Shown: one piece after another, positions 1 through 52,928 of the stretch
Layout: the number at the start of each line of letters is the position of its first letter
Position numbering within the stretch: position 1 is the first letter of the stretch
Origin: a virus
Virus record (IMG/VR): IMGVR_UViG_3300021389_000005
Span: 32,001-96,000 of that record
Length of the DNA stretch: 64,000 nt
Reading direction: 5' to 3' (one strand)
The notes under the pieces: generated by a model
Told to the model about the DNA's origin: nothing
The model's input: only the letters and a program-made list of their open reading frames with translations
Databases searched by the model: none
Translations under genes and position numbers: made by a program

Positions 1-1
1 T

Positions 2-8283: not shown

Positions 8284-9228
8284 ATGGCACATACATACAC
8301 AAGAACAGTAACAGTAGTTCCAAGCGATGATAATTATGAATGGCAGAATCCTGCAGGGTGGATAACCATTAATCAAGTTGGAAGCTCTGATACGTGGGAG
8401 ATTACAGTATCTGATAATACGACTAGTCAAAATAGGTCAGCAATATTAACGGTTAATCATTCTGATGGTGCAACTACTAATTCTATTACAGTAAATCAAG
8501 CTGGTACAGGTGGAATAACAGCATCTCCAACTCCACAGCCTAGTCCAAGTTCGAGTGCAATACCTCCAACTCCGACACCAAGTAATTCGGCAGCAGCTGA
8601 AACAATAGCTGTTACATTTAATAACACATCACTTGCTAACTTTTTATTAGATGATGATAACGGTGGAAAAGGAGGAGGGGCAGGCTCAGCCTCACTAACA
8701 TATAGCTATAATTATAGCGGTACGACATCTGGGAATTTAGTACCTGTAATTACACAAATCGATCCTAGGATTTCGGTTACTTTTGCTCACGGTACATCTG
8801 CCGGCGGAGTTACATACGGTTCAATCTACATTAACAGTATAGACACTGGTGGTTGTCCAGCACAAGGTTTAACATTAACTGATTTAATAATATCTCATCC
8901 TGGTAATAGTAATGCAACATATACTTTAAATGGTAGCTTAACGCAAGCCTTTGTCTGTAATGATTTCCAAGTCTATAAAGGCACTAGCCCATCGAATGCA
9001 TGTCTCCAAATAGGAAGTGGAGCAGATACATATTCATCAGCTGATGCAACTTGGCAAAATGGAACGATATTATTTGACGGAGCCAACGGTTCAATAACAC
9101 CAGCAGAAGAAGACAGATATTACATACACCCTCTTGTTTCTTCTAATGCTATTTGGTACAATAGAATAGGTGGACTAGGTTTAGAATTAAGTACATCTCA
9201 ATGTAGTGATTTTAGTACATCTTCTTAA
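8284..9228 (+). CDS. BACON-domain virion adhesion/fibre protein
   Basis: W..PAGWIT...ITVSDNTTSQNRSAILTV...SITVNQAG fits the BACON pattern (W-I-T, N, R, final V-x-Q); a PT linker follows. Confidence 0.7.
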   Translation: MAHTYTRTVTVVPSDDNYEWQNPAGWITINQVGSSDTWEITVSDNTTSQNRSAILTVNHSDGATTNSITVNQAGTGGITASPTPQPSPSSSAIPPTPTPSNSAAAETIAVTFNNTSLANFLLDDDNGGKGGGAGSASLTYSYNYSGTTSGNLVPVITQIDPRISVTFAHGTSAGGVTYGSIYINSIDTGGCPAQGLTLTDLIISHPGNSNATYTLNGSLTQAFVCNDFQVYKGTSPSNACLQIGSGADTYSSADATWQNGTILFDGANGSITPAEEDRYYIHPLVSSNAIWYNRIGGLGLELSTSQCSDFSTSS

Positions 9229-20760: not shown

Positions 20761-22032
20761 ATGAAAATATATACAGACTTTAGTACATTTATAACCGAAA
20801 GGGTTCACTTACAAGAATCTAATTTAATATTAGAAGGTGGAGCAGCCGGCCACATGTCACACCCGTTTGATAACAAGTCATTGACATTCGGCGATTTTAA
20901 AAAGCTTATAGAATCTGGATTAAGTGGAGAACTTAATTTTGAAGAAGACCCTACCGAAAAAACAGATGGTCAAAATTTATTTGCAACTGTTAAAGATGGA
21001 GAAACAATGTTTGCCAGAAATAAGGGTCAAATGAAAAATCCAATAGACCTAAACGGTATTATTAAGATGTTTACTGGTCACGCTTCTAAATTAGTAGAAG
21101 AAACATATATTTTTGCAGCAAAAGATTTAGCTGACGCTTTACCAAAACTTAAGGATCAATCAATGTTTGCAAACGGATTAAATTTCGTTAACATGGAATT
21201 GATCTACTCTAAAAACCCTAACGTGATATATTATGATAGAGATGTCATTCAATTTCACAATATAGTAGAGACAGACGGAGAAGGTAATCAAACAGGAACT
21301 CAAAACTTAGCAACAGAATTAGTAGGTGCTTTAAAAGAATTAAAGAAAGATGTTCAAAACACATTTACTATAATTCCACCACAAGTATTAAAGATTGCTA
21401 AAGACGTTGACTTTGAAGCAAACAAGTCAAAATTCATTAAACAAGTAGAAGCATTAAAGAATCGTTATAAACTAACAGATGCTGACGAAGTTTCCAGATA
21501 TCACGAAATGTGGTGGAGAGAAACGATAGACACAAATTTCCCTGATCTAGAACAAAACCACAAAGAAGGTTTATTATTAAGATGGGCATATGGTGATAAG
21601 AAGACTTTAAATTTAAGATCATTAGACAAAGCTATCGGTAAAGATAAAGCTGCACTAATTAAGAAGTTTGATAAAGAAGATGTTAAAAAGAAGTATAAAG
21701 AAAACATTAGACCATTTGAAGATCTATTCTTAGAATTAGGATCAGTAATTTTGAAAAACGCAAGTAACTTTGTAGCTGCATCGCCAGACAAAGAAATGCA
21801 AAGACTGCATAATCAAATTAGAACTGAAGCTGCTAAGATTAAAAAATCAGGTGGAATTGATCAAATTAAAAAAGTAGAAGCTGAGCTTGCTAGACTAGAA
21901 AGAATCGGTGGAATAGAGTCTATTATACCAACTGAAGGTTTAGTTTTTAAATACAAAGGACATACTTACAAATTAACAGGCACTTTTGCCGCAATCAATC
22001 AATTGATGGGAATCATCAAATACGGCAGATAA
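20761..22032 (+). CDS. ATP-dependent ligase-fold (KxDG) protein of T4-like marine phages
   Basis: EGGAAGHMSHPFD; motif I TEKTDGQN; NMELIY; EGLVF..K..YKLTG.F (motif IV/V-like); capsid-targeting-like start FSTFITE. Confidence 0.6.
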   Translation: MKIYTDFSTFITERVHLQESNLILEGGAAGHMSHPFDNKSLTFGDFKKLIESGLSGELNFEEDPTEKTDGQNLFATVKDGETMFARNKGQMKNPIDLNGIIKMFTGHASKLVEETYIFAAKDLADALPKLKDQSMFANGLNFVNMELIYSKNPNVIYYDRDVIQFHNIVETDGEGNQTGTQNLATELVGALKELKKDVQNTFTIIPPQVLKIAKDVDFEANKSKFIKQVEALKNRYKLTDADEVSRYHEMWWRETIDTNFPDLEQNHKEGLLLRWAYGDKKTLNLRSLDKAIGKDKAALIKKFDKEDVKKKYKENIRPFEDLFLELGSVILKNASNFVAASPDKEMQRLHNQIRTEAAKIKKSGGIDQIKKVEAELARLERIGGIESIIPTEGLVFKYKGHTYKLTGTFAAINQLMGIIKYGR

Positions 22033-22044
22033 AACAAAAATAAT

Positions 22045-23889
22045 ATGGCACTACAAAACCTAAAAACATATTTTGAATCTACTAATATCAATGACTTTAA
22101 TGAGTTATTGAGTAACATATGTGTTGTAACAGAAAAAGTGCAAGCATCAAGTTTTCACGTAAGAAGAGAAGAGGTTGGTAAATTTGAATTTTTTAAGAGT
22201 GGTTCAAAAATTGCAATGAATCGCGTAGATAGAACTCTCGTTAAATATTATGAAAATGCCATTAAACATTTTAACACTATTTCAGACGAAGCGTTAAATG
22301 AAATGCCAAAAGATTGGAAATTTGGATTTGATTACATGGTAGATAAGAAAACTATCGACATAGAATATGACTTATTACCAAAAAACAATTTAATACTAAC
22401 ACATATACAGGTACTTAACGCAACAGATCCTACGAGAGTTAAGAGAGTTATTAGAGATCCTAGAATTCTTGAGAAGTGGGCAACTAAACTAGAAGTACAA
22501 GAAATATCAGTTTTATTTGAAGGTCAATTAGCATTGAATCAAAAAGAAGATCTAATAGACTTATTGTCTTTAGGTGAATCAGAATTTAAAACTAAATTTG
22601 AGAAGGAATCATTTACAAGGTTAATATACAATATATTCGATAACGGTAGAAATAAATCAGCATTAAATCTAGATTTAGATAAAGATATTGATGCATTGGT
22701 AGTAAACTTCTACGAGAATAGAAATCCTAAGAGTTTTAAACTAGAAAGATTTGATAGAATTGAATCAGAGCCTAGAAAACCATCTGACATGTATCAAATA
22801 TCTATATTAGATTTAGTTGAATTTTTAACAAGTTTTGATATATCAGATATAGAATTAAAAGAAGAGGACGCAGATCTTAGATATGTAGAATTAATGTCAT
22901 CTATATTTAATGCTTACGTAGAAAAGCACGCAACTAAATATGTAGGCGCAGATTTTGATTCAGCAGATTTTGCAGAAGGTGAAAACTTTGAACTTAATAC
23001 AGCATATATCTCTAATGAGAAAACCCTCTCACTAGTACAAAACAAAGTGTTATCGGAACTTTTTAAAATAGCACTCGGTTCTTTTAGAAAAAAGAGAAGC
23101 AAAGAAACTGATATTATAAATTCAGATCTTATGTCTCAGATTAATGAAATAGTTGAAGAGATAGAAACTATCATAATGGGTAAAACAAACGAAAAAGATG
23201 TAATGGATTTTAAAAAATATCTAATTAATCAAAAACTAAATGGCGACGTAAGTCCAATAATGGAAGGATTAACTGTAGACTATCCAGATCAGGGTAAAAA
23301 GCTAGTTAATATGTTTGTTGGTAGATTTCAGCCGTTCACATTAGGACATGCTAAGGTAATAGACACTATTAGCAAACAAAACGGACATCCTGTTGTTGTA
23401 ATATTGATTAAATCAAAGACTAAGAAAAAAGAAGATGCTTTTAAAAGACCTTATGATGAGGAAACTCAATTAGCAATGCTTAATAAATTAAAGTCTAAAT
23501 ACCCAATAGAAAAAGTATACATTTTAGATAGAGCGGCAATAGATTATATGTTTAACGCAATGAGAGCCGATGGTTACGAACCGGTACTTTGGGGAACAGG
23601 AACAGATAGGCTCAAAACATATTCGTATCAAGTTGATAAACCAGAATATAGAGAATCTTTAAATTGTAGAGAAGATTTCGGTTTATTTGAAATCCCTAGA
23701 TCTGGTAAAAACATTTCAGCAACACAAGTTAGAAATGCAATGTTAGACGGTGATGAAAAGACATTTAAAAAATTAACACCTAGACCAATTCATGGTATGT
23801 ATACTGAATTGAGAACAAAATTAGAGGTTTCTATGGGTGTTGCAGAGTCAAAATTCATGACATTTGAACAGTTTGTGAAGAAAGACTAA
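22045..23889 (+). CDS. Degenerate ligase-fold domain fused to a HIGH-family nucleotidyltransferase (cytidylyltransferase/NMNAT-like)
   Basis: N-terminal VTEKVQAS (decayed KxDG); C-terminal GRFQPFTLGH, GTDR and ISATQVR. Confidence 0.72.
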   Translation: MALQNLKTYFESTNINDFNELLSNICVVTEKVQASSFHVRREEVGKFEFFKSGSKIAMNRVDRTLVKYYENAIKHFNTISDEALNEMPKDWKFGFDYMVDKKTIDIEYDLLPKNNLILTHIQVLNATDPTRVKRVIRDPRILEKWATKLEVQEISVLFEGQLALNQKEDLIDLLSLGESEFKTKFEKESFTRLIYNIFDNGRNKSALNLDLDKDIDALVVNFYENRNPKSFKLERFDRIESEPRKPSDMYQISILDLVEFLTSFDISDIELKEEDADLRYVELMSSIFNAYVEKHATKYVGADFDSADFAEGENFELNTAYISNEKTLSLVQNKVLSELFKIALGSFRKKRSKETDIINSDLMSQINEIVEEIETIIMGKTNEKDVMDFKKYLINQKLNGDVSPIMEGLTVDYPDQGKKLVNMFVGRFQPFTLGHAKVIDTISKQNGHPVVVILIKSKTKKKEDAFKRPYDEETQLAMLNKLKSKYPIEKVYILDRAAIDYMFNAMRADGYEPVLWGTGTDRLKTYSYQVDKPEYRESLNCREDFGLFEIPRSGKNISATQVRNAMLDGDEKTFKKLTPRPIHGMYTELRTKLEVSMGVAESKFMTFEQFVKKD

Positions 23890-29371: not shown

Positions 29372-29683
29372 ATGTCTAAAAATAAGAAATCAAACATTCT
29401 ATCTGAAGCTAACGACATCGTAAATAATCGTTCTGAAGAAAAATCACGCCAATATGGCCCATTCGAAGAAGGTATGAGACGCGCAGCAATGATATTCAAT
29501 GGTATGACCGGCCAAGACCTTAACGGTTCAGATATGTATGCTGCGTTAGTAGCTTTAAAGCTAAGCAGACATTCATACAACTATAAACAAGATAATTTAT
29601 TAGATGCAGTAGCTTACTTAGGTGCATTAGATAACTATGTAGATAAACATGGTTATAAAGAAAGCGAGGATCCATTAAAATAA
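29372..29683 (+). CDS. DUF6378-like all-alpha nucleotide pyrophosphohydrolase
   Basis: ILSEA..IV..R....YGP...LKLSR......DNLLDAVAY pattern. Confidence 0.7.
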   Translation: MSKNKKSNILSEANDIVNNRSEEKSRQYGPFEEGMRRAAMIFNGMTGQDLNGSDMYAALVALKLSRHSYNYKQDNLLDAVAYLGALDNYVDKHGYKESEDPLK

Positions 29684-29687
29684 AAGT

Positions 29688-30749
29688 ATGACAGAGTTAA
29701 CATTTTTTACAGAACAGGAAACCGATAAGTCGATTAAAGTCGGCATTTGTGCATTGGTTGGTAAAATTAGCCCAAAAATCTCATCACATAAAGGTGCGTG
29801 GGCCCATATGCTATTAAATCAATTGCAAAATGCTGGTTTTGAAAACGCAGAAGTAATCACATCTAATCAAACTGATTGGAACGACTATGACGCAATTCTT
29901 ATTGATCATGGTATGGAATTCAAAGGCACCTTCAATATATTTGGAGGATCTAATGATGATTTATATCACCAATTAATGAGGTTATTTACACCAGTCAAAA
30001 TGTATTCTTTACACCATGACATGCCAGATATTGGTAACTTAATTAAAACTAGACTTAAAGCCGGTACAGATTTATTTAAAACACTTGAATCTAGAATTGA
30101 AGAAGCTACAGAAATCTGTATGGAAATACAAAAGATTGATCATATTGAAAAAACTGAAAAATTATGTTTTGGTGATAGTCACTCTTTTGGAATGTATCAA
30201 GCAGGATATATGTGCCAAAGACACGATGGATTAACAATGCACGGTGCACTTAAGCGCGGTTTACAAAGCTATGTTTATCCATGGGTAAATGAACTTACAG
30301 TTTATATGGGTAATATCGATGTTCGACATCATCTAATGCGTCAGTCAAATCCAAGCGCTGCGGTTAAAGTACTTATAAAAAGATACGAAGAAGAACTTAT
30401 CGGATTAGGCATTAATAACATTGAAATTGTAAATGTTTTACCTATTGAAAACGAAAGTAGACCTTTACCAAAAACAGGGTACTATAAAGGAACACCTTTT
30501 GCTGGGACTTGGAATGAACGTACAGAATTAGTTAAAGAAATTAATACTGGAATAGAAGACATGGCACAAAGAAACAACTGGAAGGTTTATAAACACCCAG
30601 AAGTTTATTTTAACGCCAAAGGTGAATTAACTTTTGATGTAATGGAAAAACCTAAATCTGTACATATATCCAGAGAATATTATAGATGGAACATGGAAAA
30701 AAACGAAGCAAATAAAAATTTAATTAAACAAACACTATCTTTATTTTAA
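29688..30749 (+). CDS. SGNH/GDSL-like acyl hydrolase/transferase associated with DNA modification
   Basis: FGDSHS (block I), YMGNIDVRHH (block III-like), KSVH (block V-like); C-terminus QTLSLF. Confidence 0.55.
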   Translation: MTELTFFTEQETDKSIKVGICALVGKISPKISSHKGAWAHMLLNQLQNAGFENAEVITSNQTDWNDYDAILIDHGMEFKGTFNIFGGSNDDLYHQLMRLFTPVKMYSLHHDMPDIGNLIKTRLKAGTDLFKTLESRIEEATEICMEIQKIDHIEKTEKLCFGDSHSFGMYQAGYMCQRHDGLTMHGALKRGLQSYVYPWVNELTVYMGNIDVRHHLMRQSNPSAAVKVLIKRYEEELIGLGINNIEIVNVLPIENESRPLPKTGYYKGTPFAGTWNERTELVKEINTGIEDMAQRNNWKVYKHPEVYFNAKGELTFDVMEKPKSVHISREYYRWNMEKNEANKNLIKQTLSLF

Positions 30750-30898
30750 TGAAAGCAGACGAAAAATTCAACATAGAAATTACCTACAACGGATCAGGTA
30801 AAACCGAAACAATAGTAATAGAAACTAAAGACATCGAGTGGTCAATGACACAATTTCAAAGAAATAGACCATCGTTTAATTGGAAAATTATAGATTAA
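30749..30898 (+). CDS. Small hypothetical protein (49 aa), not in the ORF track
   Basis: TAATG-coupled start; MKADEKFNIEITY...TKDIEWSMTQFQRNR.. Confidence 0.55.
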   Translation: MKADEKFNIEITYNGSGKTETIVIETKDIEWSMTQFQRNRPSFNWKIID

Positions 30899-30899
30899 A

Positions 30900-31697
30900 A
30901 TGCAAATATCTCCAAATGAAATAGCTAGAATAGCACAAATAGCATTTGTTCTAGAACCTATAGCTAATAAACCTGGATTAACAACTAGATATGCCGATAG
31001 GAATAGAAACTTAAAGCTAGAAAACTTCCTAGTAGCTGGTATTAATACAGGAGATTCATTTAGAGAATTAGCAAAACGAGTTTACGAATCTAAAGATTTA
31101 CCAATAACGTATGATATTGCACTACAAGCTCAAAAAGATTCATTTAAAAATAGACAAGGTAGTAGACTTATATATGGCGGTATAATTAGTTTATTTCCAT
31201 TGATCATAACACAAACACATATCCGGTCAACTGATCCATATGCAATTCTAAGCAATGTAGAAGATGTATTAAAACAAACACACAGAGAAGATGCAGTACA
31301 TCTTCAAGAGTTAGAAAACTATGCTTATAGTTTTGGTATTAATCATAAACAATATATGTTTGAAGTAAAGGATGAATATGAAAATGTCTGGGATTATTTA
31401 GAAAAAGATTTGATATCAATAGGAGAAATAACACAAACACATTGGAAGGACAGAGCTAAAACAGGATCATCGAATAAAGAAATATTGAATGGATATCCTA
31501 TTGTAAAGGCCATGTTAGATATTTATTACAGTACTATAAAAAATAAAGAATGGCGAGGAATAAGTCAAACAACAGAAGAAATAGATTTCTTAATAAGAAG
31601 AGAATTTCCAAATGCACACATTCAGTGGTTAGCAGATCTACATGTATGTTTGATGTATTTGATCTTATGTCATGAAAATAAAGAATTTTTTGTATAA
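30900..31697 (+). CDS. Divergent CitG-like (triphosphoribosyl-transferase fold) protein
   Basis: IARIAQIAFVLE..NKPGL..R, ENFL, G.I.L.PL, T.REDAV and LAD match the archaeal-type CitG pattern; the NT(N/H) and NPG motifs are altered. Confidence 0.65.
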   Translation: MQISPNEIARIAQIAFVLEPIANKPGLTTRYADRNRNLKLENFLVAGINTGDSFRELAKRVYESKDLPITYDIALQAQKDSFKNRQGSRLIYGGIISLFPLIITQTHIRSTDPYAILSNVEDVLKQTHREDAVHLQELENYAYSFGINHKQYMFEVKDEYENVWDYLEKDLISIGEITQTHWKDRAKTGSSNKEILNGYPIVKAMLDIYYSTIKNKEWRGISQTTEEIDFLIRREFPNAHIQWLADLHVCLMYLILCHENKEFFV

Positions 31698-31709
31698 AAT
31701 AAAAAAGCA

Positions 31710-32918
31710 ATGAACATAACAACAACCAAATATTACGATGAATTCTTAAGATATTTTGAGCTAGCCAAAAAACAGCAAGATCTAAGTAATCTTGGTCATG
31801 TTCCACATGCAGAATCAAAACTAGATGACGAACTAATGCATCACATAGAATTATATGATGTAGTAGAACGTAAATATGCTGGATTTTCCCAAATAATCAA
31901 TGACTGTTTTTATGGTTGGAATTCAGATCATCCATATTGGTCAAGAATGGAAGCAGGATTATACACACCACAGCGAATGGAAGTGGCCACTAATTGGAAT
32001 TCTAAGAGAGACGAATTTGGCTTAGAAGAATGGCTTTACATCTTTATACTTCACAGAGTATGTGGATCTGCCATTAATTATGCTACTAAGCCTTCAGGAT
32101 ATCACAACACTATTTTATTTAATTTACACGAATGTGAAACTATAGAAGAAATGTGTGAAGTGATCAAACATCATCCTACACCCTTTTATACTTCAGTTGG
32201 TTATCAATTTCCAGCATTTCCAAAACCACCAAAACCAGAAGTTAATGAAGATTCATTCGTTGGCATGTCAGGTTTTACAAAACCAGAATATGTGTATAAA
32301 AGAGGTGGAGATTATTTCTTATGTGAATTTGCACCAAGAATGGCCAGAGACATGGCAAACTTCTTAAGAGAAGGTGGTAAAAAAGACTTAAGAGAATTGG
32401 GTGAATGGATGTTTAAGTGGAATGCAGATAATGGCTTAAGAGCTTATAGATTTCAATATGCTGCAGTTATTGCAGATGTTTGTGATTGGTACCCTGAATT
32501 TATGAATAGAGAATCAATGTTCTATTATGGTACTAACGCAGTGGAATGCATTGGCTATCTTGCAGATCCTGTAGAAAAGAAAGGTAAGAAGTCTGAAGAG
32601 TTTTTAGATGCAGTAATGACAAAGATTTATGAAGATACAGGCTCACTTCCGTATAATGCAGAAGATGTAGCATGTGACTTTATCAGATGGATAGAAAACT
32701 ATTTGAGACCTGGAAAAGATTATGCACATATAAACATGGACACTTTGTGGAATTCTTCTTCGATTATAGATCATCCATATGGTAGGCAAAAAGCTATGTT
32801 AGATTTAGGTTTAGTAGAAACATTCAATGACATGACTCAATTTCCATCAGACGACAAAGTATTACAAGGGGCAGGAGTCTCGGTTGAAGAGTATAAAAAA
32901 ATGGTAGCAAAAATATGA
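31710..32918 (+). CDS. Amino acid:DNA transferase-like protein (aGPT-Pplase, HhH-glycosylase fold), paralogue 1
   Basis: YDVVER, FQYAAVIAD, YGTNA..CI and AEDVACDFIRW correspond to the N-V-x-R, F..Q..D, GPGA and E..LCE..KY motifs. Confidence 0.65.
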   Translation: MNITTTKYYDEFLRYFELAKKQQDLSNLGHVPHAESKLDDELMHHIELYDVVERKYAGFSQIINDCFYGWNSDHPYWSRMEAGLYTPQRMEVATNWNSKRDEFGLEEWLYIFILHRVCGSAINYATKPSGYHNTILFNLHECETIEEMCEVIKHHPTPFYTSVGYQFPAFPKPPKPEVNEDSFVGMSGFTKPEYVYKRGGDYFLCEFAPRMARDMANFLREGGKKDLRELGEWMFKWNADNGLRAYRFQYAAVIADVCDWYPEFMNRESMFYYGTNAVECIGYLADPVEKKGKKSEEFLDAVMTKIYEDTGSLPYNAEDVACDFIRWIENYLRPGKDYAHINMDTLWNSSSIIDHPYGRQKAMLDLGLVETFNDMTQFPSDDKVLQGAGVSVEEYKKMVAKI

Positions 32919-34021
32919 GTGAAGAAGTAAAAGAAATCAAAAAAGAAATTAAGCAAGCACCCGATCAAGGTGTTTTGTTTACATTTGATGATGATATCAC
33001 ACAAGAGTACAGTAACATCACTTATGACGGAACTAATACAAATATAAAATTTAAGAAGAAGAAACCTGCAGAAAGTTGGATGAAAGACTGGTCAGAAGAA
33101 TTGAGATTAGCTAAATTCTTTGAATTCTGTCATGAGTTTGATAAGCGAGAAGATAGATTACTATTAGAAGATTATCAAATATTTTCCCATAGATTACACT
33201 GGCATGAACATCCTTATTGTTATATGATGCAACATGAGACAGATCTAGAAAAATTACTTTATTATACTATTGTGTTTTCATTCTCTAACGAACATTGGGG
33301 AACCATTACTAAATTAATTAATCAAGGTGAAGAAAAGACTAGAGCACATTTTGTAGAAAATAGACATGCTAGGAATGATTTATTTCAGATCTATTATCCT
33401 AAAGGTACAATAGTTAAAGATTGGTTAATTGAAGGACCTAAAAAAGCAGCTAAAGACATGGCTCATATTCTAGAAGATTTAGAAAGACCATACACAATGA
33501 TGGAGTTTGCTAAATTATTAGAAGCTTATTTTAAAGAACATCAAAACTTTAGATCACCTTTATATCCATGCAAAAACACAGCAAGATATGTAGCTATGAG
33601 TAGACCAGATCTTGTTGATCCTGAATCTATTTTATTCGGAGGTACTGGACATTTTGATGGTATGCAACAAATATTCGGTGGAGTTAATCTTAATGGTAAA
33701 GTAAAATATTCTATTGACTCAGATGGACAATTTATTGCAGAGAATAAACATGCTGAAGAATGGCTAAGACAAATGGATGTACTTGTAAATCATCCAAATA
33801 ATCCAATGGAAAGTCAAAAGTATTTAAACGTAGAAGATAAAACATGTTTCTTCTATAAACACATTGCAATTAGTCATGGCATAAAATCACCAACAAAAAG
33901 AATTCCATATACATGGATATTTGATGGTAAATTTAATTTAGCTAAGAATCCAGATAAAGAAATTAATGTTAACGCAGATACTACTCGACATTTATGGGGT
34001 AGAGATTATCCAAACGAATAA
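32915..34021 (+). CDS. Amino acid:DNA transferase-like protein (aGPT-Pplase), paralogue 2
   Basis: FF.F...FDKRE, FGGTGHFDG and NVEDKTCFFYK; ATGA-coupled to paralogue 1. Confidence 0.55.
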   Translation: MSEEVKEIKKEIKQAPDQGVLFTFDDDITQEYSNITYDGTNTNIKFKKKKPAESWMKDWSEELRLAKFFEFCHEFDKREDRLLLEDYQIFSHRLHWHEHPYCYMMQHETDLEKLLYYTIVFSFSNEHWGTITKLINQGEEKTRAHFVENRHARNDLFQIYYPKGTIVKDWLIEGPKKAAKDMAHILEDLERPYTMMEFAKLLEAYFKEHQNFRSPLYPCKNTARYVAMSRPDLVDPESILFGGTGHFDGMQQIFGGVNLNGKVKYSIDSDGQFIAENKHAEEWLRQMDVLVNHPNNPMESQKYLNVEDKTCFFYKHIAISHGIKSPTKRIPYTWIFDGKFNLAKNPDKEINVNADTTRHLWGRDYPNE

Positions 34022-34024
34022 AAT

Positions 34025-34921
34025 ATGGCACACGATAAACACACAACAAGTTCAATGAATCAAGATTTAAATCTTATGATGCCTAATAGACAGGCATGGT
34101 TAGATTTAGCAGGAGATTGGCAAGATCCACTAGATGATCCAATTATTGTGAATCATGAAGGATTTAATGTAGTAAGAGATGATATGATGGGCTTTGGATC
34201 TAAATGTAGATTTGGAGATATCTTAGTACAGAAAGCACCGACCGATACATTAGTATATGTACAACCTAGATTTGGATTCGCAGGAATTTCTCTTGCATAC
34301 TTAGCAAAAAAATATAATAAGAAATTAGTATTATTTATGCCATCTGGTAAAGTAATATCAGATCATCAAGCCATATGTATTGAAAGAGGTGCTATTGCTA
34401 AATTTAGAAGAATCGCAGCAATGCCTAATTTAAATAGAATTGCAAAACAATGGGCAGAAGATAACAACGCTACATTTATTCCACTAGGACTTAAACATGA
34501 ATTGGTAACTGCAGCTGCGGTAAAAGTTGCATATGATGTAGCAGAAAAACACGGATATCCGGAAGAAGTATGGTCAGCAATATCAACTGGAGTTTTACAA
34601 CGCTCTTTACAAATTGCATGGCCAGATGCTGAATTTAATGCAGTTGCAGTTTCTAGAAATATTCAGAACGGTGAATTGGGTAGAGCTAAAGTTTGGTCTC
34701 ATCCAAAGGCATTTGCATCAGATGTAAAACCAGAATTTGCCCCTCCGTTTCCATCAGCAATGAACTACGATGCAAAAGCTTGGGAATTTATGGTTAAGCA
34801 TGGAAATCAAGGAGCTTGGTTTTGGAATGTAGGTGGACAACCTTACCCAGAATCAGAAGAAACTAAAGAAAAAACAAATTCAAAAAGAGAATGGGGAGAA
34901 GTTTTAGAAATAGACAAATAA
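34025..34921 (+). CDS. PLP-dependent fold-type II (PALP) enzyme, probable decarboxylase/lyase acting on a DNA-linked amino acid
   Basis: VVRDD...GSKCR (PLP lysine), GFAGISLAYLA, STGV, YDAKAW, FWNVG. Confidence 0.8.
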   Translation: MAHDKHTTSSMNQDLNLMMPNRQAWLDLAGDWQDPLDDPIIVNHEGFNVVRDDMMGFGSKCRFGDILVQKAPTDTLVYVQPRFGFAGISLAYLAKKYNKKLVLFMPSGKVISDHQAICIERGAIAKFRRIAAMPNLNRIAKQWAEDNNATFIPLGLKHELVTAAAVKVAYDVAEKHGYPEEVWSAISTGVLQRSLQIAWPDAEFNAVAVSRNIQNGELGRAKVWSHPKAFASDVKPEFAPPFPSAMNYDAKAWEFMVKHGNQGAWFWNVGGQPYPESEETKEKTNSKREWGEVLEIDK

Positions 34922-34972: not shown

Positions 34973-35437
34973 ATGGCGAACATAGACAACAAATGCGCAG
35001 ATCTTGATATTCAAGATTATCACAAAGATACCAAAGACACTTTTGGTTTACTCTTTGACAAACAAAAAGAATTACAAGCTAGATTAGGTTTTGACTTTAA
35101 AGGTTGGAGCATTAAAGAGATTGCAGATTTCTGGATGGTGAATAAACATGCAATGAGCGACGAGCTTAATGAAATGTTTGATGCACTTGGAGGAATTAAC
35201 GACGGAATCGGCAATGCAGGTTGGAAATATTGGAAAAAGGATAATGCTAAGACTCCTGAAATGAAAATTGAAGATCTTAGTGAAGAAGACAAATTAGAGT
35301 TATTTTATGAGTGGATTGACGGTCTTCATTTTTATATGAACTTTGCAATTTCAATTGGCATGACAAGTAAAGACATTGTTAACTTGTACATGGCAAAGAA
35401 CGCAGAGAATCACGACAGACAAGAACGAGGATATTAA
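34973..35437 (+). CDS. Dimeric all-alpha dUTPase/MazG-like NTP pyrophosphatase
   Basis: QKELQ, DELNE, WKYWK, EWIDGLHF, Y.AKN.EN..RQ.RGY. Confidence 0.85.
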   Translation: MANIDNKCADLDIQDYHKDTKDTFGLLFDKQKELQARLGFDFKGWSIKEIADFWMVNKHAMSDELNEMFDALGGINDGIGNAGWKYWKKDNAKTPEMKIEDLSEEDKLELFYEWIDGLHFYMNFAISIGMTSKDIVNLYMAKNAENHDRQERGY

Positions 35438-35458: not shown

Positions 35459-36862
35459 ATGCTATTAGATATAGAGCAAAAAGAAAACGAAGTCATAATC
35501 AGTTATTACGATAAAGAAGGCAAAGTATCATTTAAAAGATATTCTGTTAACAAATTTGAAAATTGGGTAGTTACTGAAGAAAAGGATCGTTGGAAAGATA
35601 TTAAATTTAGAAACTGGGATAATCGCCCAATTAAGAGATCTATCTCAAGAAGTTTTAATAAATTTAGTTTGCTCTATTTTATGGATTCTCTACCACAAAA
35701 GGATCAAGATGAAATCTTCGAATTTAATATGCCACGCACATACTTTGTGGATATTGAAACTGAAATTGTAGATGGTTTCCCAAAAGCAGAAGAAGCTAAA
35801 ACCAGAATTCTATCATTCTCTATCATTACACCTGAACGTAAAGCAATTGTTTTAGGTTTAGAAGATATGAGTTCAGATCAAATCAAAAAGATTGAAGATG
35901 ATACCAATGCTCATTTTAAAGATTATGATCAGGATTGGGAATTCAGTTATTACAAGTTTGATGACGAGTATAACATGGTATATACATTCTTACATAAGTT
36001 TTTACCTAAGTTCCCAATGATGACTGGTTGGAATTTCATCAACTATGACTGGCAGTATATAGTTAATAGGTGTAAAAGATTACAAATAGACCTGACTGAC
36101 GTGGCAATCACTGGATCTTTAGATAGAAACGATAGTAGACCATTACACATGGGAATATTAGATTATATGCAGCTATATGATAAATATGATAGATCAGTTG
36201 CTGTAAAAGAATCTAATTCATTAGACTTTGTATCTAGCGCAGTATTAGATGTTGCAAAGATTAAATACACTGGTGGTTTACAAGAACTATACGAAAATAA
36301 CTTCCAAAAATATATTTACTATAACGTGGTCGATTCATGTTTAGTATATTATATAGATAAACAACTTAGATCAATGGAAGTACTATTGACATTAGCAACT
36401 ATAACTAGAATGCCACTTTACAAAGCAGCATCTCCAGTGGCAGTAACAGAAGCGCTTATAGCTAGAAAGCTAATCGGTCAAAATAAAAAAATTGGAATGG
36501 AATGGAATAAAGAAGATGCAAAGAAAGACGGTAAATTTGAAGGAGCATTCGTTAAACAACCAATTGTAGGTTATTACTCTGGAGTTTCAGCGTTTGATTT
36601 TGCATCTCTATATCCATCAATTATGCGTCAATTTAATATATCTCCGGATGCATTTGTTGAACAAGTAAATGAAATGGATATTCCAGAAAGAAGAAAAGAT
36701 AAAGACGTAATCGTCTGTGAAAACGGAGTTGTTTATAAGAAAGAAGATAGTATTCTTAAAAAAATATTGGCAGATTTATATGGCCAACGTAAAGAATATA
36801 AAAAGACTTCTTATGAATATTATGAAAAAGCCCACGAACTAGAAAAAAAATTAAAGTCATAA
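35459..36862 (+). CDS. gp43A: DNA polymerase B, N-terminal subunit (exonuclease plus motif A)
   Basis: DIETE, GWN..YD, YNVVD, FEGAFV, FDFASLYPSIMRQFNISP; ends in the fingers (RKEYKK). Confidence 0.92.
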   Translation: MLLDIEQKENEVIISYYDKEGKVSFKRYSVNKFENWVVTEEKDRWKDIKFRNWDNRPIKRSISRSFNKFSLLYFMDSLPQKDQDEIFEFNMPRTYFVDIETEIVDGFPKAEEAKTRILSFSIITPERKAIVLGLEDMSSDQIKKIEDDTNAHFKDYDQDWEFSYYKFDDEYNMVYTFLHKFLPKFPMMTGWNFINYDWQYIVNRCKRLQIDLTDVAITGSLDRNDSRPLHMGILDYMQLYDKYDRSVAVKESNSLDFVSSAVLDVAKIKYTGGLQELYENNFQKYIYYNVVDSCLVYYIDKQLRSMEVLLTLATITRMPLYKAASPVAVTEALIARKLIGQNKKIGMEWNKEDAKKDGKFEGAFVKQPIVGYYSGVSAFDFASLYPSIMRQFNISPDAFVEQVNEMDIPERRKDKDVIVCENGVVYKKEDSILKKILADLYGQRKEYKKTSYEYYEKAHELEKKLKS

Positions 36863-37022: not shown

Positions 37023-38033
37023 ATGTCAAATCTCTTTAAAGAACGTCTAGAATATAAACCGTTCGAATACCCTGAATATTACACCGAAGGTTGGCTTAAA
37101 CAAGCACAGGCTTTCTGGCTACACACTGAAATCTCAATGCAAGGTGATGTAAAAGACTGGAATGAAAACCTAATGCCACATGAAAAGAACTTAGTAGGCA
37201 ATATTCTTTTGGGTTTCGCCCAAACCGAATGCGCGGTATCTGATTACTGGACAAACATGGTTACCAGTTGGTTTCCTAAACATGAAATTAGACAAATGGC
37301 TATGATGTTCGGTTCACAAGAAACTATACACGCTGTTGCATATTCATATCTTAATGAAACTTTGGGTTTGGAGGATTTCGCAGCATTTCTTCATGAGCCT
37401 GCAACTGCCGAAAAATTTGAATTTTTAACTTCAACAACAGCTGATTACACACATGAAGATTTACAAACAAATCCTGTAGCAAGAAGGGAAGTAGCAAGAT
37501 CATTGGCTATTTTCAGTGCATTTGCAGAAGGTGTTTCTTTATATTCATCGTTTGCAGTACTTTACTCGTTTCAAATGAGAAACTTATTAAAAGGTATTGG
37601 ACAACAAATGAAGTGGTCTGTAAGAGATGAATCATTACATAGTAAAATGGGATGTCAGTTGTTTAGAGAGATGTGTAATGAATATCCTGAACTATTTGAA
37701 GAGATTCATGCAGATGTACTTAAAGCAGCCGAATACATGGTTGAAATGGAACACAAGTTTATTGATAAAATGTTTGAGCAAGGGGATCTTGCAAATATGG
37801 AAGCAGAAAATCTAAAACATTTTATTGTTAAAAGAGCTAACGAAAAAATCGCTGAATTAGGATATAAAGAAGGTCCATTTATGGAATTAGATAGTGAAAA
37901 GGCTAGTCATTTAGATTGGTTCTATCATTTAACAGGTGGACATACACACACAGACTTTTTTGCTATCAGACCTACTGATTATGCAAAAGCAGGAGAAGAC
38001 GAGAATTGGGACGAGGACGACTTATTCGATTAA
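37023..38033 (+). CDS. nrdB: Ribonucleotide reductase class I, beta subunit
   Basis: YKPFEYP, FW...E, AQTE, ETIHAVAY, AEGV.L.SSF, RDESLH. Confidence 0.93.
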   Translation: MSNLFKERLEYKPFEYPEYYTEGWLKQAQAFWLHTEISMQGDVKDWNENLMPHEKNLVGNILLGFAQTECAVSDYWTNMVTSWFPKHEIRQMAMMFGSQETIHAVAYSYLNETLGLEDFAAFLHEPATAEKFEFLTSTTADYTHEDLQTNPVARREVARSLAIFSAFAEGVSLYSSFAVLYSFQMRNLLKGIGQQMKWSVRDESLHSKMGCQLFREMCNEYPELFEEIHADVLKAAEYMVEMEHKFIDKMFEQGDLANMEAENLKHFIVKRANEKIAELGYKEGPFMELDSEKASHLDWFYHLTGGHTHTDFFAIRPTDYAKAGEDENWDEDDLFD

Positions 38034-38047
38034 TATAAATAATAAAA

Positions 38048-39880
38048 ATGAACAAAGAAGATAAAGTAAATTACGGAGCGTCCTTAGGTTGGGAGCTAGG
38101 TGTAGATTTCCCAACATGGGGAAACACAGAGATATATGTTAAAACAATAAGCAAAGGATATTGTTACCAAGATGAAACACCTAAAGATGCATACTGGAGA
38201 GTTGCAACTACGATTGCTAAAAGATTAGGCAAACCTGAACTTGCATCGAAATTCTTTGATTATATATGGAAGGGTTGGTTAAATCTAGCCTCACCTGTGC
38301 TTTCAAATACTGGATTAGAAAGAGGTTTACCTATTTCATGTTTTGGTATTGATGTTGCGGATTCAATTCACGATATCGGTGCTAAAAACCTAGAGATGAT
38401 GCTACTTGCCAAACATGGCGGTGGTGTAGGTACAGGAATTAATCAAATTAGACCAGCGGGTGCAAAAATTACAGGAAACGGTACATCAGATGGAGTTGTA
38501 CCTTTTTGCAAAATATTTGACTCTACGATACTTGCCACTAATCAGGGTTCTGTTCGTAGAGGAGCAGCAAGTGTTAACATTGATATTGAACATCCTGATT
38601 TCTGGGAATGGTTAGAAATTAGAGAACCTAAGGGTGATGTCAACAGACAATCATTAAATTTACACCAATGTGCAGTAATACCAGATGGTTTTATGCAAAA
38701 AGTTGAAGCTGGTGATAAAGAGTCTCGCAAAAAGTGGGCTGCGCTCTTAAGGAAGCGTAGATCTACAGGAGAGCCATATATCATGTACAAAGGAAATGTC
38801 AATAGAGCAAATCCAGAGGCATACTCTAAGAATGGATTAAAAGTTTATATGACTAACATTTGTTCAGAAATAACATTACATACTGACGAGAATCACTCAT
38901 TTGTTTGTTGCCTTTCTTCTGTAAATTTAGCAAAGTATAATGAATGGAAAGATACTGATCTGATTTACACTGCAACTTGGTTTTTAGATGGCGTTATGGA
39001 AGAGTTTATCCAAAAGGCTAAATTTATGAGAGGCTTTGAAAACTCAATTAGATCTGCAGAAAAAGGTAGAGCTTTAGGGCTTGGTGTATTAGGATGGCAT
39101 ACATATTTACAAGAAAAGAACATTCCGTTTGATTCTTTATCAGCTCAATTCGAAACACGTAAAATCTTTTCACAATTAAAGATAGAATCTGAAAGAGCAT
39201 CAAGAGATCTAGCTACAGAATATGGCGAACCATTATGGTGTGTAGGAACTGGAATGAGAAATACTCACTTAAGAGCTATTGCTCCAACAGTAACTAATTC
39301 TAAACTTAGTGGAAATGTTTCTCCAGGTATTGAGCCATGGGCAGCAAATCTATTAACAGAACAAACAGCTAAAGGTACTTTCATTAGAAAGAATCCAACA
39401 TTAGAACAAGTTTTAGATACAATAGGTAAGAATACTAAATCAACATGGGATAAAATACTAGAAGATGGTGGATCAGTATTAGGATTACCATGGATTGAAG
39501 ATTACTTTGTCTCATCATTTTCAGATAACGAAGGAACTTCAGGTATTCAAAAGCCACTAACTAAAAAGCAATTAGAAAAACTACCAACATTAGAACAAGC
39601 TGATTATATTCCAATGTCTGATGTATTTAGAACCTTCAAAGAAATTAATCAATTAGATTTAGTAAGACAAGCAGGTATTAGACAACAATATGTTGATCAA
39701 GCTGCAAGTTTAAATCTAGCGTTTCCAAAAGAGGCAGAACCTAAATTTATTAATCAAGTACATTTAGAAGCATATAGAAAGGGTGTAAAAACACTTTACT
39801 ACATGAGAACAGAATCAGTACTTAGAGGAGATATCGCTGCGGCAGCTACAGATCCAGATTGTGCTGCATGTGATGGATAA
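38048..39880 (+). CDS. nrdA: Ribonucleotide reductase class I, alpha subunit (no ATP cone)
   Basis: ASPVLSN, SCF, GGGVG, RRGA, TNICSEI, CCLSS, IAPT, KTLYY; C-terminal CAACDG. Confidence 0.94.
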   Translation: MNKEDKVNYGASLGWELGVDFPTWGNTEIYVKTISKGYCYQDETPKDAYWRVATTIAKRLGKPELASKFFDYIWKGWLNLASPVLSNTGLERGLPISCFGIDVADSIHDIGAKNLEMMLLAKHGGGVGTGINQIRPAGAKITGNGTSDGVVPFCKIFDSTILATNQGSVRRGAASVNIDIEHPDFWEWLEIREPKGDVNRQSLNLHQCAVIPDGFMQKVEAGDKESRKKWAALLRKRRSTGEPYIMYKGNVNRANPEAYSKNGLKVYMTNICSEITLHTDENHSFVCCLSSVNLAKYNEWKDTDLIYTATWFLDGVMEEFIQKAKFMRGFENSIRSAEKGRALGLGVLGWHTYLQEKNIPFDSLSAQFETRKIFSQLKIESERASRDLATEYGEPLWCVGTGMRNTHLRAIAPTVTNSKLSGNVSPGIEPWAANLLTEQTAKGTFIRKNPTLEQVLDTIGKNTKSTWDKILEDGGSVLGLPWIEDYFVSSFSDNEGTSGIQKPLTKKQLEKLPTLEQADYIPMSDVFRTFKEINQLDLVRQAGIRQQYVDQAASLNLAFPKEAEPKFINQVHLEAYRKGVKTLYYMRTESVLRGDIAAAATDPDCAACDG

Positions 39881-41474: not shown

Positions 41475-42683
41475 ATGAATATCGAAGAGCTAGAAAATAA
41501 ATCTATCGAGGAATTAAATGATAATGAGGCGAAGCTGCTTGTAGATCACTACAAGCAGCTTTCAGCCAAATACACTGCATATGAACAAGCAGTTAAGTTA
41601 ACACTAAACTCGATCTACGGAGCCTTCGGTAATAAGTGGTTCCACTTTTTTAATATTGACATTGCCGAGTCAATTACAAAACAAGGTAAAAACGCAATTC
41701 TTTATTCAGAAACTATTCTCAACAAATATGTTAATGAGTTTTGGCACAAAGATGCTGCAGTACATTCTCACTTTGGAATTAAAGTAAAAGGTAAAATAGA
41801 AAAGCCAGCAGTAATTTATATTGATACAGATTCATGTTATGTACAGTTTCAAGATTTATATGAATCTATAATTTGGCCAGAAGAAACAGAGAAAATGGAA
41901 ATCGATGTGTTTATTTTAGCACTTTATGGTTTCAGACTTAGAGATTACATTACTAAGTGTATGGAGAAATATGCAGATAAAAGAAACTCAGATAATTATT
42001 TGATGTTTGAATTAGAAGCGCTTGCATATAATGGTATTTGGATGTCTAAGAAAAAGTATATTCAGAACATTGCATGGGATGATAAATTAGAAACCACAGA
42101 CAGGCATACTTCATTAAAGAAAATTAAAACAATTGGTTTTGATACTATTCAATCATCTACGCCTAAATTTGCAAGAGAGAAACTAGTTGAAGCTCTTAAA
42201 ATTATATTTAAAAGTAGAGTAACTCCAACAGCAGAAGATCTTCAAACATTAGTTGTTTTCATGAAAGAAACAAAAAAGCAATTTAAACTTGCAGATATTG
42301 ACGAGATTTCTTTTAATAGAAGGACTAACAATATTGACAAATATATTGTTGATGATCAGAAAGAATTTCAAATAGGTCTAAAATGTCCAGCAAACGTTAA
42401 AGCAGCCGGATATTACAATTACTTATTGAATAACAATAAAAAATATAAAAACAAATATAAGGTTATCGGTAACGGTGAAAAACTAAAGATCTACAATTGT
42501 AAATCACCAATATCTGAAGTATATGCATATATGCCAGGAGATCATCCTTATGAAATTGCACCAGAAATTGATTACGATACTCAATTTGAAAAAGCAATGA
42601 TCGATCCTCTTAATAGAGTATTAACAGCGATTGGTCTACAAACACTAGATACTAACCTAATTTACGCATCGTCGTTATTTTAA
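41475..42683 (+). CDS. gp43B: DNA polymerase B, C-terminal subunit (motifs B and C, thumb)
   Basis: KLTLNSIYGAFGN, AESITKQG, YIDTDS, KKKY, SSTP; ends ASSLF. Confidence 0.92.
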   Translation: MNIEELENKSIEELNDNEAKLLVDHYKQLSAKYTAYEQAVKLTLNSIYGAFGNKWFHFFNIDIAESITKQGKNAILYSETILNKYVNEFWHKDAAVHSHFGIKVKGKIEKPAVIYIDTDSCYVQFQDLYESIIWPEETEKMEIDVFILALYGFRLRDYITKCMEKYADKRNSDNYLMFELEALAYNGIWMSKKKYIQNIAWDDKLETTDRHTSLKKIKTIGFDTIQSSTPKFAREKLVEALKIIFKSRVTPTAEDLQTLVVFMKETKKQFKLADIDEISFNRRTNNIDKYIVDDQKEFQIGLKCPANVKAAGYYNYLLNNNKKYKNKYKVIGNGEKLKIYNCKSPISEVYAYMPGDHPYEIAPEIDYDTQFEKAMIDPLNRVLTAIGLQTLDTNLIYASSLF

Positions 42684-52077: not shown

Positions 52078-52455
52078 ATGCCTAGAAAAAAGAATTACCT
52101 CAATAACAAAGATCTTTATAACGCAATAGTAGAATCTAAAGATCAAGATAAGTTAACACCTACAGCAGAGAAGATGTTAATATTACTTGCAGAAAGAGCA
52201 ATAAATAAATTAACATACGTAAATAGCGACGATAGAGATGATTGCTTACAATTTGCCATGTTAGATTTACTAAAATACTGGCGTAATTTCAATCCCAAGT
52301 ATACTAATGCATTTGCATATTTTACAGAGATAGCAAAAAGAGGATATGCTAAAGGTTGGAATAAAATACACCCACAAAAATATAAAAACACACTTTCTAT
52401 GGATAAGATTTCTTCAAAGGATTCTAGTGGAGACGGTGGAATGTTCAATATCTAA
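52078..52455 (+). CDS. gp55: Late-transcription sigma factor (gp55-like)
   Basis: NYLNNKDL, LAER, NFNP..TNAFAYFTEI. Confidence 0.85.
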   Translation: MPRKKNYLNNKDLYNAIVESKDQDKLTPTAEKMLILLAERAINKLTYVNSDDRDDCLQFAMLDLLKYWRNFNPKYTNAFAYFTEIAKRGYAKGWNKIHPQKYKNTLSMDKISSKDSSGDGGMFNI

Positions 52456-52928
52456 TGTCAATAAAAAATGTCAAGCCAACTAATAATTCAGGATTTGTAC
52501 AAGGATATTTTATTCCAACAAACCCAGAAAAATATATTGGCCCGACACCCATTATATACAGATCATCTTGGGAAAGAAAGTTCATGATAATGTGTGATAC
52601 TAAAGATAATGTCGTTAAGTGGGCAAGCGAGCCTGTTGAGATTAAGTATATATGGTCTTTTGATAAAAGAGAACATAAGTATTATCCTGACTTCTATATG
52701 AAAACAAAAACAGAAGAAGGTTTTGAAGAGTTTCTAGTTGAAATAAAACCCGAAGCTCAGATAAAAAAACCCCAGCCTCCTAAAAAAAGAAGCAAGGGTG
52801 CCATTAAATCATATAAGTTTTTAGCAGAACAGTATGTTAAGAATATGGATAAATATAAGTACGCCAGAGCTTGGTCAGAAAACCGAGGATGGAGATTTAT
52901 CGTACTTACAGAAAAGTCACTTAAATAA
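52455..52928 (+). CDS. gp4: Head completion nuclease (TnsA-like)
   Basis: NPEKY.G, YRSSWE, WASE, YYPDF, VEIKP, F.VLTE. Confidence 0.9.
   Translation: MSIKNVKPTNNSGFVQGYFIPTNPEKYIGPTPIIYRSSWERKFMIMCDTKDNVVKWASEPVEIKYIWSFDKREHKYYPDFYMKTKTEEGFEEFLVEIKPEAQIKKPQPPKKRSKGAIKSYKFLAEQYVKNMDKYKYARAWSENRGWRFIVLTEKSLK

Follow-up and report, generated by a model that had tools for sequence, protein, structure and literature searches.

Why does a marine phage carry a gene of the CitG family inside a probable thymidine-hypermodification operon, and does that gene take part in the pathway? The question arises from a stretch of 64,000 nucleotides (positions 32,001 to 96,000 of IMG/VR virus record IMGVR_UViG_3300021389_000005; hereafter the window), in which an open reading frame (ORF) with an ATG start, at 30900..31697 on the plus strand, encodes a 265-residue protein with a match to the Pfam CitG family (PF01874) and a predicted CitG fold. 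The answer that we favor, at a probability of roughly 0.55, is that this protein would be an autonomous, mobile accessory enzyme, transferring ribosyl-triphosphate to an acceptor other than the precursor of the citrate-lyase cofactor and not belonging to the core of hypermodification.

The protein is a genuine but very divergent member of the CitG superfamily. Its match to PF01874 scores 42.5 bits (E 8.2e-11; curated cut-off 27) and spans residues 9-213, corresponding to positions 1-195 of the 284 in the profile. The CitG-type motifs quoted in the initial annotation of this DNA are legible in the translation (IAQIAFVLEPIANKPG, GGIISLFPL, HREDAV, and WLADL), with four residues between LE and KPG instead of the two that had been claimed. 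An AlphaFold2 model, for which 79 homologs served as input, is all-helical, with a mean predicted local distance difference test (pLDDT) of 94.7 and a predicted template-modeling score (pTM) of 0.93. Its top Foldseek match in the PDB was 3h9p (probability 1.00, E 1.1e-2), a putative triphosphoribosyl-dephospho-CoA synthase from Archaeoglobus fulgidus. VIA-align superposed model and structure with a Z score of 16.0 and a root-mean-square deviation of 2.8 Å over 182 residues at 18% identity, the runner-up chain reaching a Z of 3.7, and 3h9p was the sole convincing PDB match. Furthermore, the subfamily profile matched 3h9p with an E of 5.8e-14, aligning R30, D131, and the ADL motif. The structural comparison with CitG that had been proposed thus supports the fold, and together with the Pfam match and the quality of the model it bears out the description of the protein as a divergent CitG. 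The nearest solved structure, an archaeal cellular protein with no published function that we know of, transfers no function to the window protein. Among 79 aligned sequences of the clade to which the window protein is assigned below, E19 is kept in all and K24, T28, R30, N49, D131, A245, and D246 are each kept in at least 90%; all these residues are intact in the window protein. Other searches returned nothing: there was no PHROG family match, no NCBIfam family at E <= 0.01, no phmmer match among PDB sequences, and no CitG-like match at E <= 1e-3 in a tblastn search of 50,697 records of cultured phages.

Although it belongs to the superfamily, the window protein does not pass as CitG/MdcB proper (EC 2.4.2.52), either by sequence or by genomic partners, because no significant profile match to Escherichia coli CitG was obtained and because the Cit partners are missing. 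The clade profile gave an hhalign probability of 0.5% and an hmmsearch score of -1.9 against E. coli CitG, neither of them significant. The likeness to that protein lies in local alignments only, in which K-P-G-L-T-T-R pairs with K-P-G-L-V-D-R (an N-terminal K-P-G-L-x-x-R motif) and WLADL with PGGSADLL (a C-terminal A-D-L motif). At this second site the PG position had been described as changed, and in fact the window protein reads ...HIQWLADLH where E. coli CitG reads ...SPGGSADLL. The absence of a citrate-lyase or acyl-carrier-protein partner, also claimed in the initial annotation, was confirmed by Pfam scans of the window and of the remainder of the 126-kb record (43% complete), which turned up none of CitD, CitE, CitF, and CitX, and no partner gene of citrate lyase, malonate decarboxylase, or CitX/MdcG type stood by the homologs whose neighbors were Pfam-scanned. 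With CitG/MdcB the protein shares the PF01874 match above cut-off and the all-helical fold; it differs in lacking PGG ahead of ADL and any NCBIfam match, and its gene is phage-borne and moves as a single ORF without CitX or a lyase or decarboxylase partner. The match and the fold would suit an ordinary CitG/MdcB making 2'-(5''-triphosphoribosyl)-3'-dephospho-CoA for a citrate lyase or malonate decarboxylase of the host, but with no NCBIfam model, a subfamily profile that misses E. coli CitG, and no CitX, CitD, CitE, or CitF in the 126 kb or beside the scanned homologs, we consider this role very improbable.

The gene is an optional insertion. We compared 80 viral loci encoding a relative (60-99% identity) of the 402-residue protein specified by the next gene downstream (31710..32918, plus strand), which resembles amino acid:DNA transferases (AADT, aGPT-Pplase). 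Only two of them, L009 and L010 (on the same contigs as L001 and L002), contain the CitG-like gene. In 66 loci the gap between the AADT-like gene and an upstream gene for an SGNH-like protein is 2-367 nt, too short to hold it; eight have another gene order and no CitG-like gene, and four do not cover the upstream side. The co-occurrence with aGPT-Pplase genes for which the initial annotation had proposed a check is therefore rare. One of the CitG-less loci, L011, encodes flanking proteins 98-100% identical to those of the window. DNA alignments with L011 and with two other CitG-less loci (L028 and L012) gave the same break points and one clean block, a segment of 810 nt (30906..31715, plus strand) whose limits are codon 3 of the CitG-like gene and codon 2 of the 402-codon gene, with a 12-nt spacer included. 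In the CitG-less phages, ATGCAAATAACA... comes after the stop codon of a small ORF of 49 codons and begins the AADT-like gene. The same ATGCAAATA opens the CitG-like gene in the window, where the AADT-like start is shifted 810 nt downstream. Similarity to the CitG genes of two further loci, L089 and L091, begins at ATGCAAATA (ATG) as well and stops just past the stop codon. From these break points and this extent of similarity it follows that a single ORF was inserted, exactly 810 nt, where the first AADT-like gene has its start codon, and a short stretch of shared sequence was probably the site.

The two alleles are present together in seawater, and public reads bear out the insertion independently. 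In the marine sequencing run X5, position 30905 is joined to 31716 in a contig with a word depth of 81, which leaves out exactly 810 nt (three letters fit either side), and a second contig, with a depth of 13.8, carries the junction between the 49-codon ORF and the CitG-like gene; these word depths are rough and give no population shares. In run X7 the CitG-bearing form spans both junctions. A metagenome fragment, L108 (positions 1-3691), has the 49-codon ORF and after it no more of a CitG-like gene than the initial 45 residues' worth (73% identity), with no other window gene detected downstream, and may represent a third allele or an assembly chimera.

Homologs of the gene are also found in quite different surroundings. 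Among 21 metagenome loci with a CitG-like gene, three share the window arrangement (L088, which shares its contig with L001, and two fragments, L102 and L108) and the other 18 show no gene of the cluster within the DNA covered, so that the tie to a modification locus drawn in the initial annotation does not hold as far as the contigs reach. The homologs in L089 (83% identity), L091 (78%), and L092 (75%) have no neighbor gene in common with the window, and stand near a tail-fiber chaperone domain, a GSCFA protein, DUF6267 proteins, a holin, and a terminase. The neighbors of the homologs at 56-83% identity include three conserved small families, present in six, five, and three loci, which have no Pfam assignment and do not occur in the record of the window itself; their matches were limited to phrog_29277, a family of unknown function, and a weak one to a structural protein. 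Near more distant homologs there are glycosyltransferases, a methyltransferase, a sulfotransferase, an epimerase, and 2OG oxygenases. A homolog at 42% identity lies on a 118.6-kb contig (G001, 45% complete) together with ThyX; the AADT-like profile found no match on that contig, and neither did PF18723 and PF18724, a result that is uninformative as both models miss the AADT-like genes present in the record of the window. There may also be a loose recurrence of cytidylyltransferase-type proteins around CitG-like genes. A 423-residue window protein (20761-22032) is 43% identical to part of an 828-residue protein encoded in L092, where 2.7 kb separate it from the CitG-like gene; relatives of the latter in L091 and L092 have an N-terminal cytidylyltransferase-like region with weak matches to phrog_395 (that of L091 also has DUF6267), and the adjacent 614-residue window protein (22045-23889) has a cytidylyltransferase/NMNAT-like domain.

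By its sequence, the window protein belongs to a distinct, deep, and uncharacterized clade of the CitG superfamily. An exhaustive HMMER search returned 116 representative clusters at E <= 1e-3, 71 of these at E <= 1e-10. The members are stand-alone proteins in marine phages, whereas those of ultra-small bacteria and archaea and of other phages are joined to phosphatases of HD or HAD type: of 30 representatives scanned, an HD phosphohydrolase stands at the N terminus of ten, a HAD_PNKP phosphatase occurs in one, and a cyclic-nucleotide-binding domain in one (P0098). The HD fusions were seen at 22 genome loci of Woesearchaeota, Yanofskybacteria, Saccharibacteria, and further small-genome lineages. 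These proteins of Candidate Phyla Radiation (CPR) bacteria and DPANN archaea are 28-38% identical to the window protein across the whole CitG-like domain and have the same conserved positions, the difference being the HD domain, which the window protein lacks. They look self-contained, since no neighboring family is found at more than five of 23 loci; a B12-type radical-SAM gene stands beside one of the 22 genome loci and at the metagenome locus L104. The fusion to phosphatases fits a phosphate-bearing product and provides the main, though indirect, support for a CitG-type chemistry in the clade. On two phage-like contigs the phosphatase is of the HAD_PNKP type, fused to the CitG-like domain in one (L100:68-1168) and encoded by a separate gene one ORF upstream in the other (L103:2214-4092). 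The clusters around them contain a TehB-like methyltransferase, DUF6071, a sulfotransferase, and glycosyltransferases, contexts that hint at the decoration of glycans or small molecules.

In the phages that carry it, the gene has been maintained. The ratio of nonsynonymous to synonymous substitution rates was 0.08-0.24 in all ten pairwise comparisons of five CitG-like copies, and as far as sequence can tell the gene is intact, under purifying selection, and functional. It lies in a long same-strand array, 1 nt after the 49-codon ORF and 12 nt before the 402-codon one. A terminator scan found no terminator-like site between it and its neighbors, and a promoter scan gave 30 promoter-like sites against 42.1 expected, nothing above chance. 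Contigs from an RNA run (X15) cover 30845-30991 and 31241-31390; DNA can be present in such libraries, and this coverage is not proof of transcription.

According to the explanation that we favor, the CitG-like ORF landed as an 810-nt cassette on the AADT-like start codon of an operon of SGNH-like, AADT-like, pyridoxal phosphate (PLP) enzyme, and MazG-like genes, and would now be expressed as part of a tightly packed array. The enzyme would use adenosine triphosphate (ATP) as donor of ribose 5-triphosphate, expelling adenine, and would glycosylate a hydroxyl of an acceptor other than the precursor of the citrate-lyase cofactor. The analysis itself shows the fold, the placement in the family, the anatomy of the insertion, its pattern of presence and absence, and the selection on the gene. 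Both the chemistry and the autonomy are what we infer, the former because of what CitG and MdcB do and because of the phosphatase fusions, the latter because a single ORF travels between unrelated phage neighborhoods; the enzyme would then probably work alone, on a widely available, nucleotide-like acceptor. It would be neither an activating nor an obligatory step of DNA hypermodification.

That the surrounding genes form a DNA-modification locus, as the initial annotation had stated, is probable: the 402-residue protein matches an amino acid:DNA transferase, and genes for a PLP enzyme and a MazG-like protein adjoin, so that the CitG-like gene probably sits in a thymidine-hypermodification operon. 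The model of the 402-residue protein (pLDDT 78.4) has as its top match in BFVD an 'Amino acid:DNA transferase domain-containing protein' (E 5.9e-40, TM-scores of 0.83/0.86, 57% identity), and a second match of that name follows at E 5.3e-3; the assignment is based on the model, there being no Pfam hit, and the protein has 939 homologs at E <= 1e-3. A 368-residue protein (32915..34021, plus strand; 55 of the 80 loci) is, as a lead only, a second AADT-like protein. It has no Pfam hit either, and among its atlas look-alikes is one cluster that bears the name 'putative Amino acid:DNA transferase domain-containing protein'; some look-alike clusters of both proteins carry PF18723 or PF18724, in agreement with the transferase assignment. 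A BLASTP comparison of the two was not significant (E 0.21), and tblastn of both against the 50,697 phage records gave no match at E <= 1e-3. They are followed, on the same strand, by a PLP-dependent enzyme of the tryptophan-synthase-beta/threonine-dehydratase type (34025..34921; phrog_7093, E 4.6e-39; Pfam PALP at 22 bits, under its cut-off of 35), whose gene is found in 64 of the 80 loci, many of which end early, and by a nucleoside triphosphate pyrophosphohydrolase of MazG/dUTPase_2 type (34973..35437; dUTPase_2 at 36 bits against a cut-off of 22.9; phrog_173, E 9.5e-23). After the MazG-like gene comes the N-terminal half of a family-B DNA polymerase, which is split into ORFs at 35459-36862 and 41475-42683, about 4.6 kb apart, with ribonucleotide reductase genes (37023-39880) and two ORFs without assignment between them.

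Upstream of the insertion and also on the plus strand, the conserved block begins with a DUF6378 protein (29372..29683; 46.6 bits against a Pfam cut-off of 27.1; 65 of the 80 loci), followed by a protein of 353 residues (29688..30749) whose C-terminal half is GDSL/SGNH-like with the motif FGDSHS. The latter matches phrog_13881 and phrog_17781 (E about 1e-58, function unknown), while Lipase_GDSL reaches only 15.2 bits, under its cut-off of 23.6; PDB sequence searches with this protein and the PLP enzyme gave nothing useful. Its gene is the steadiest partner of the AADT-like gene, present in 78 of the 80 loci in three gene orders, and the protein is a candidate for the step, activating or processing, that is missing from the cluster. 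The 49-codon ORF (30749..30898), directly upstream of the CitG-like gene, belongs to no Pfam or PHROG family; it occurs in 59 of the 80 loci and is conserved in relatives with the CitG-like gene and in those without it.

Known thymidine-hypermodification clusters, those of phages M6, ViI, PhiW-14, and SP10, consist of a 5-hydroxymethyl-deoxyuridine (5-hmdU) DNA kinase, an AADT (aGPT-Pplase), and a PLP enzyme (Lee et al., NAR 2021, PMC8989533); within the main text of that article 'CitG' and 'triphosphoribosyl' have 0 occurrences, and its supplements could list such genes in metavirome clusters. Our reading of the literature, which did not extend to those supplements, found no account of a phage CitG-like enzyme. 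The likeness to the four clusters lies in the AADT-like proteins and the PLP enzyme, along with the nucleoside triphosphate pyrophosphatase and, elsewhere in the 126 kb, a dCMP deaminase and a dNMP kinase of guanylate-kinase-like type. The window differs in having the SGNH-like protein as a constant partner, and in that neither a P-loop 5-hmdU DNA kinase nor a dUMP hydroxymethylase was found in this 43%-complete record. In particular, Pfam scans of the window and the rest of the record showed no P-loop DNA kinase in the cluster, and within the 126 kb there was no match to PF00303 (thymidylate-synthase-like dUMP hydroxymethylase), to PF18723 (HMUDK_hel), or to PF18724, the last two models also missing the AADT-like genes that are present.

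The record is a marine fragment of a large myovirus, the completeness given above being the CheckV estimate, with T4-type portal, capsid, gp32, UvsW, UvsX-like, and clamp-loader genes; the window has a G+C content of about 32%. The capsid protein has its nearest relatives in a 462-kb uncultured phage (51%) and in Lak phages (38%). A BACON-domain protein and the capsid protein are encoded at 8284-9228 and 58025-59446 of the window, and the BACON domain, together with the capsid kinship to the 462-kb phage and the Prevotella Lak phages, suggests a large phage of a Bacteroidota host. A protein with a TnsA-like endonuclease N-terminal domain (52455-52928, 65.8 bits) is encoded just upstream of the portal gene.

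How, then, does the position of the gene weigh against its distribution? The initial annotation had suggested a repurposing for the DNA-modification pathway, and a related possibility is that of an optional tailoring or precursor-supply enzyme, which would add a strain-variable extra layer of decoration by placing a (triphospho)ribosyl group on the hydroxyl of 5-hydroxymethyl-dU, on the appended side chain, or on a small-molecule donor. Several points favor it or count against the autonomous enzyme. The CitG-like gene is in frame, on the same strand, directly ahead of the AADT-like genes, and packed into their array, and the glycosylation of a hydroxyl by CitG chemistry would suit a hydroxymethyl or a hydroxyl-bearing adduct. 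It is retained under purifying selection, and its nucleotide identity to the copy in L001 (93.6%) is akin to that of the flanks (94.5-95.1%), a sign that it has occupied this site for a while. Moreover, the contigs of the homologs at 75-83% identity are short (4.4, 10.3, and 40 kb), which leaves room for an AADT cluster elsewhere in those genomes, and the ATP/adenine chemistry is extrapolated from relatives (E. coli CitG) that the subfamily profile does not significantly detect. Finally, the operon receives other nucleotide-handling cargo. A LOG-family gene (Pfam Lysine_decarbox, PF03641, up to 125 bits; SLOG cluster 4) is found in 24 of the 80 loci directly upstream of the PLP gene (e.g., L018:10351-11025 and L073:9206-9877) and is absent from the 126-kb record of the window, and a 151-residue cytidylyltransferase-like protein (PF01467, 56.7 bits) is encoded in two loci between the second AADT-like and the PLP genes (L040:3217-3672 and L032:10315-10467). 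As both cargo types handle nucleotides, the cargo may be non-random, which favors a link to the pathway. One locus has a NUMOD3-bearing, homing-endonuclease-like ORF in the operon (L047:10406-11011) and five have small ORFs without assignment, and this variety of inserts makes the operon a general insertion hot spot. What decides for us against the tailoring role is that 78 of the 80 loci keep the cluster without a CitG-like gene being seen (four of them without upstream coverage), that close homologs lie in unrelated neighborhoods, that the 118.6-kb contig with ThyX and the 42% homolog has no AADT-like profile match at its 45% completeness, and that distant homologs keep company with glycosyltransferases, a sulfotransferase, a methyltransferase, and an epimerase rather than with DNA enzymes. 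Repurposing for the pathway is thus not supported, and we regard the tailoring role as possible but unlikely. Somewhat harder still to credit is a strain-variable DNA armor, in which a (tri)phosphoribosyl group from ATP would be set on the hydroxymethyl or side-chain hydroxyl of the hypermodified thymidine produced by the adjacent AADT-like and PLP enzymes, giving a ribosylated DNA base, in an arms race with host nucleases; T-even phages, which differ in their sets of glucosyltransferases, offer a comparison for such a plus/minus decoration of DNA. As an observation apart, LOG-family proteins are nucleotide N-glycosidase-type enzymes, and they recur in the AADT/PLP cluster without evident reason.

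Two further explanations were considered. The triphosphoribosyl group might serve as a leaving group that activates the hydroxymethyl in place of phosphate, the CitG-like protein substituting for the 5-hmdU DNA kinase as the initial annotation had also contemplated. The 126 kb without a PF18723 match and the cluster without a visible P-loop DNA kinase would agree with this, but a missing kinase is weak evidence in a record 43% complete and with models (PF18723 and PF18724) that overlook the AADT-like genes present. Furthermore, the 66 CitG-less loci with a visible junction retain the genes for the AADT-like and PLP proteins, and no kinase or substitute for it is seen at the locus there either, the SGNH-like gene being kept in 78 of the 80; the pathway is therefore independent of the CitG-like gene, and we give the substitution hardly any credence. 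The protein could instead be a counter-defense or host-takeover enzyme that resides in the operon only for its expression, and that would ribosylate, or cleave the N-glycosidic bond of, a host nucleotide, a metabolite of the NAD/ADP-ribose type, or an immune signaling nucleotide. A sporadic, allele-like distribution among near-identical phages and the movement of a lone ORF are typical of accessory genes in arms races, the natural acceptor of CitG/MdcB is the 2'-OH of an ADP-type nucleotide, and clade member P0098 carries its cyclic-nucleotide-binding domain. Against this, no defense or anti-defense family was matched, in scans that included no search aimed at such families (PADLOC), no conserved partner marks a target (five of 23 loci being the most for any neighbor family of the HD fusions), and the proposal is wholly inferential; we find it rather doubtful.

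An autonomous accessory enzyme with ribosyl-triphosphate transfer on its own acceptor is, for these reasons, the explanation that we prefer. If it is right, the gene marks an uncharacterized branch of the CitG superfamily common to marine phages, CPR bacteria, and DPANN archaea, which probably carries out an ATP-dependent transfer of ribosyl-triphosphate on a substrate other than the cofactor of citrate lyase, a chemistry that to our knowledge is found in very few enzymes. Location within a DNA-modification operon is not enough to make a gene a member of the pathway. The 939 AADT-like homologs indicate that the cluster around it abounds in marine viromes, and with its AADT-like and PLP genes and its constant SGNH-like protein it may merit study in its own right. 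For the CitG-like enzyme itself, the natural plus and minus alleles in near-identical phages are a ready-made comparison for finding its substrate.

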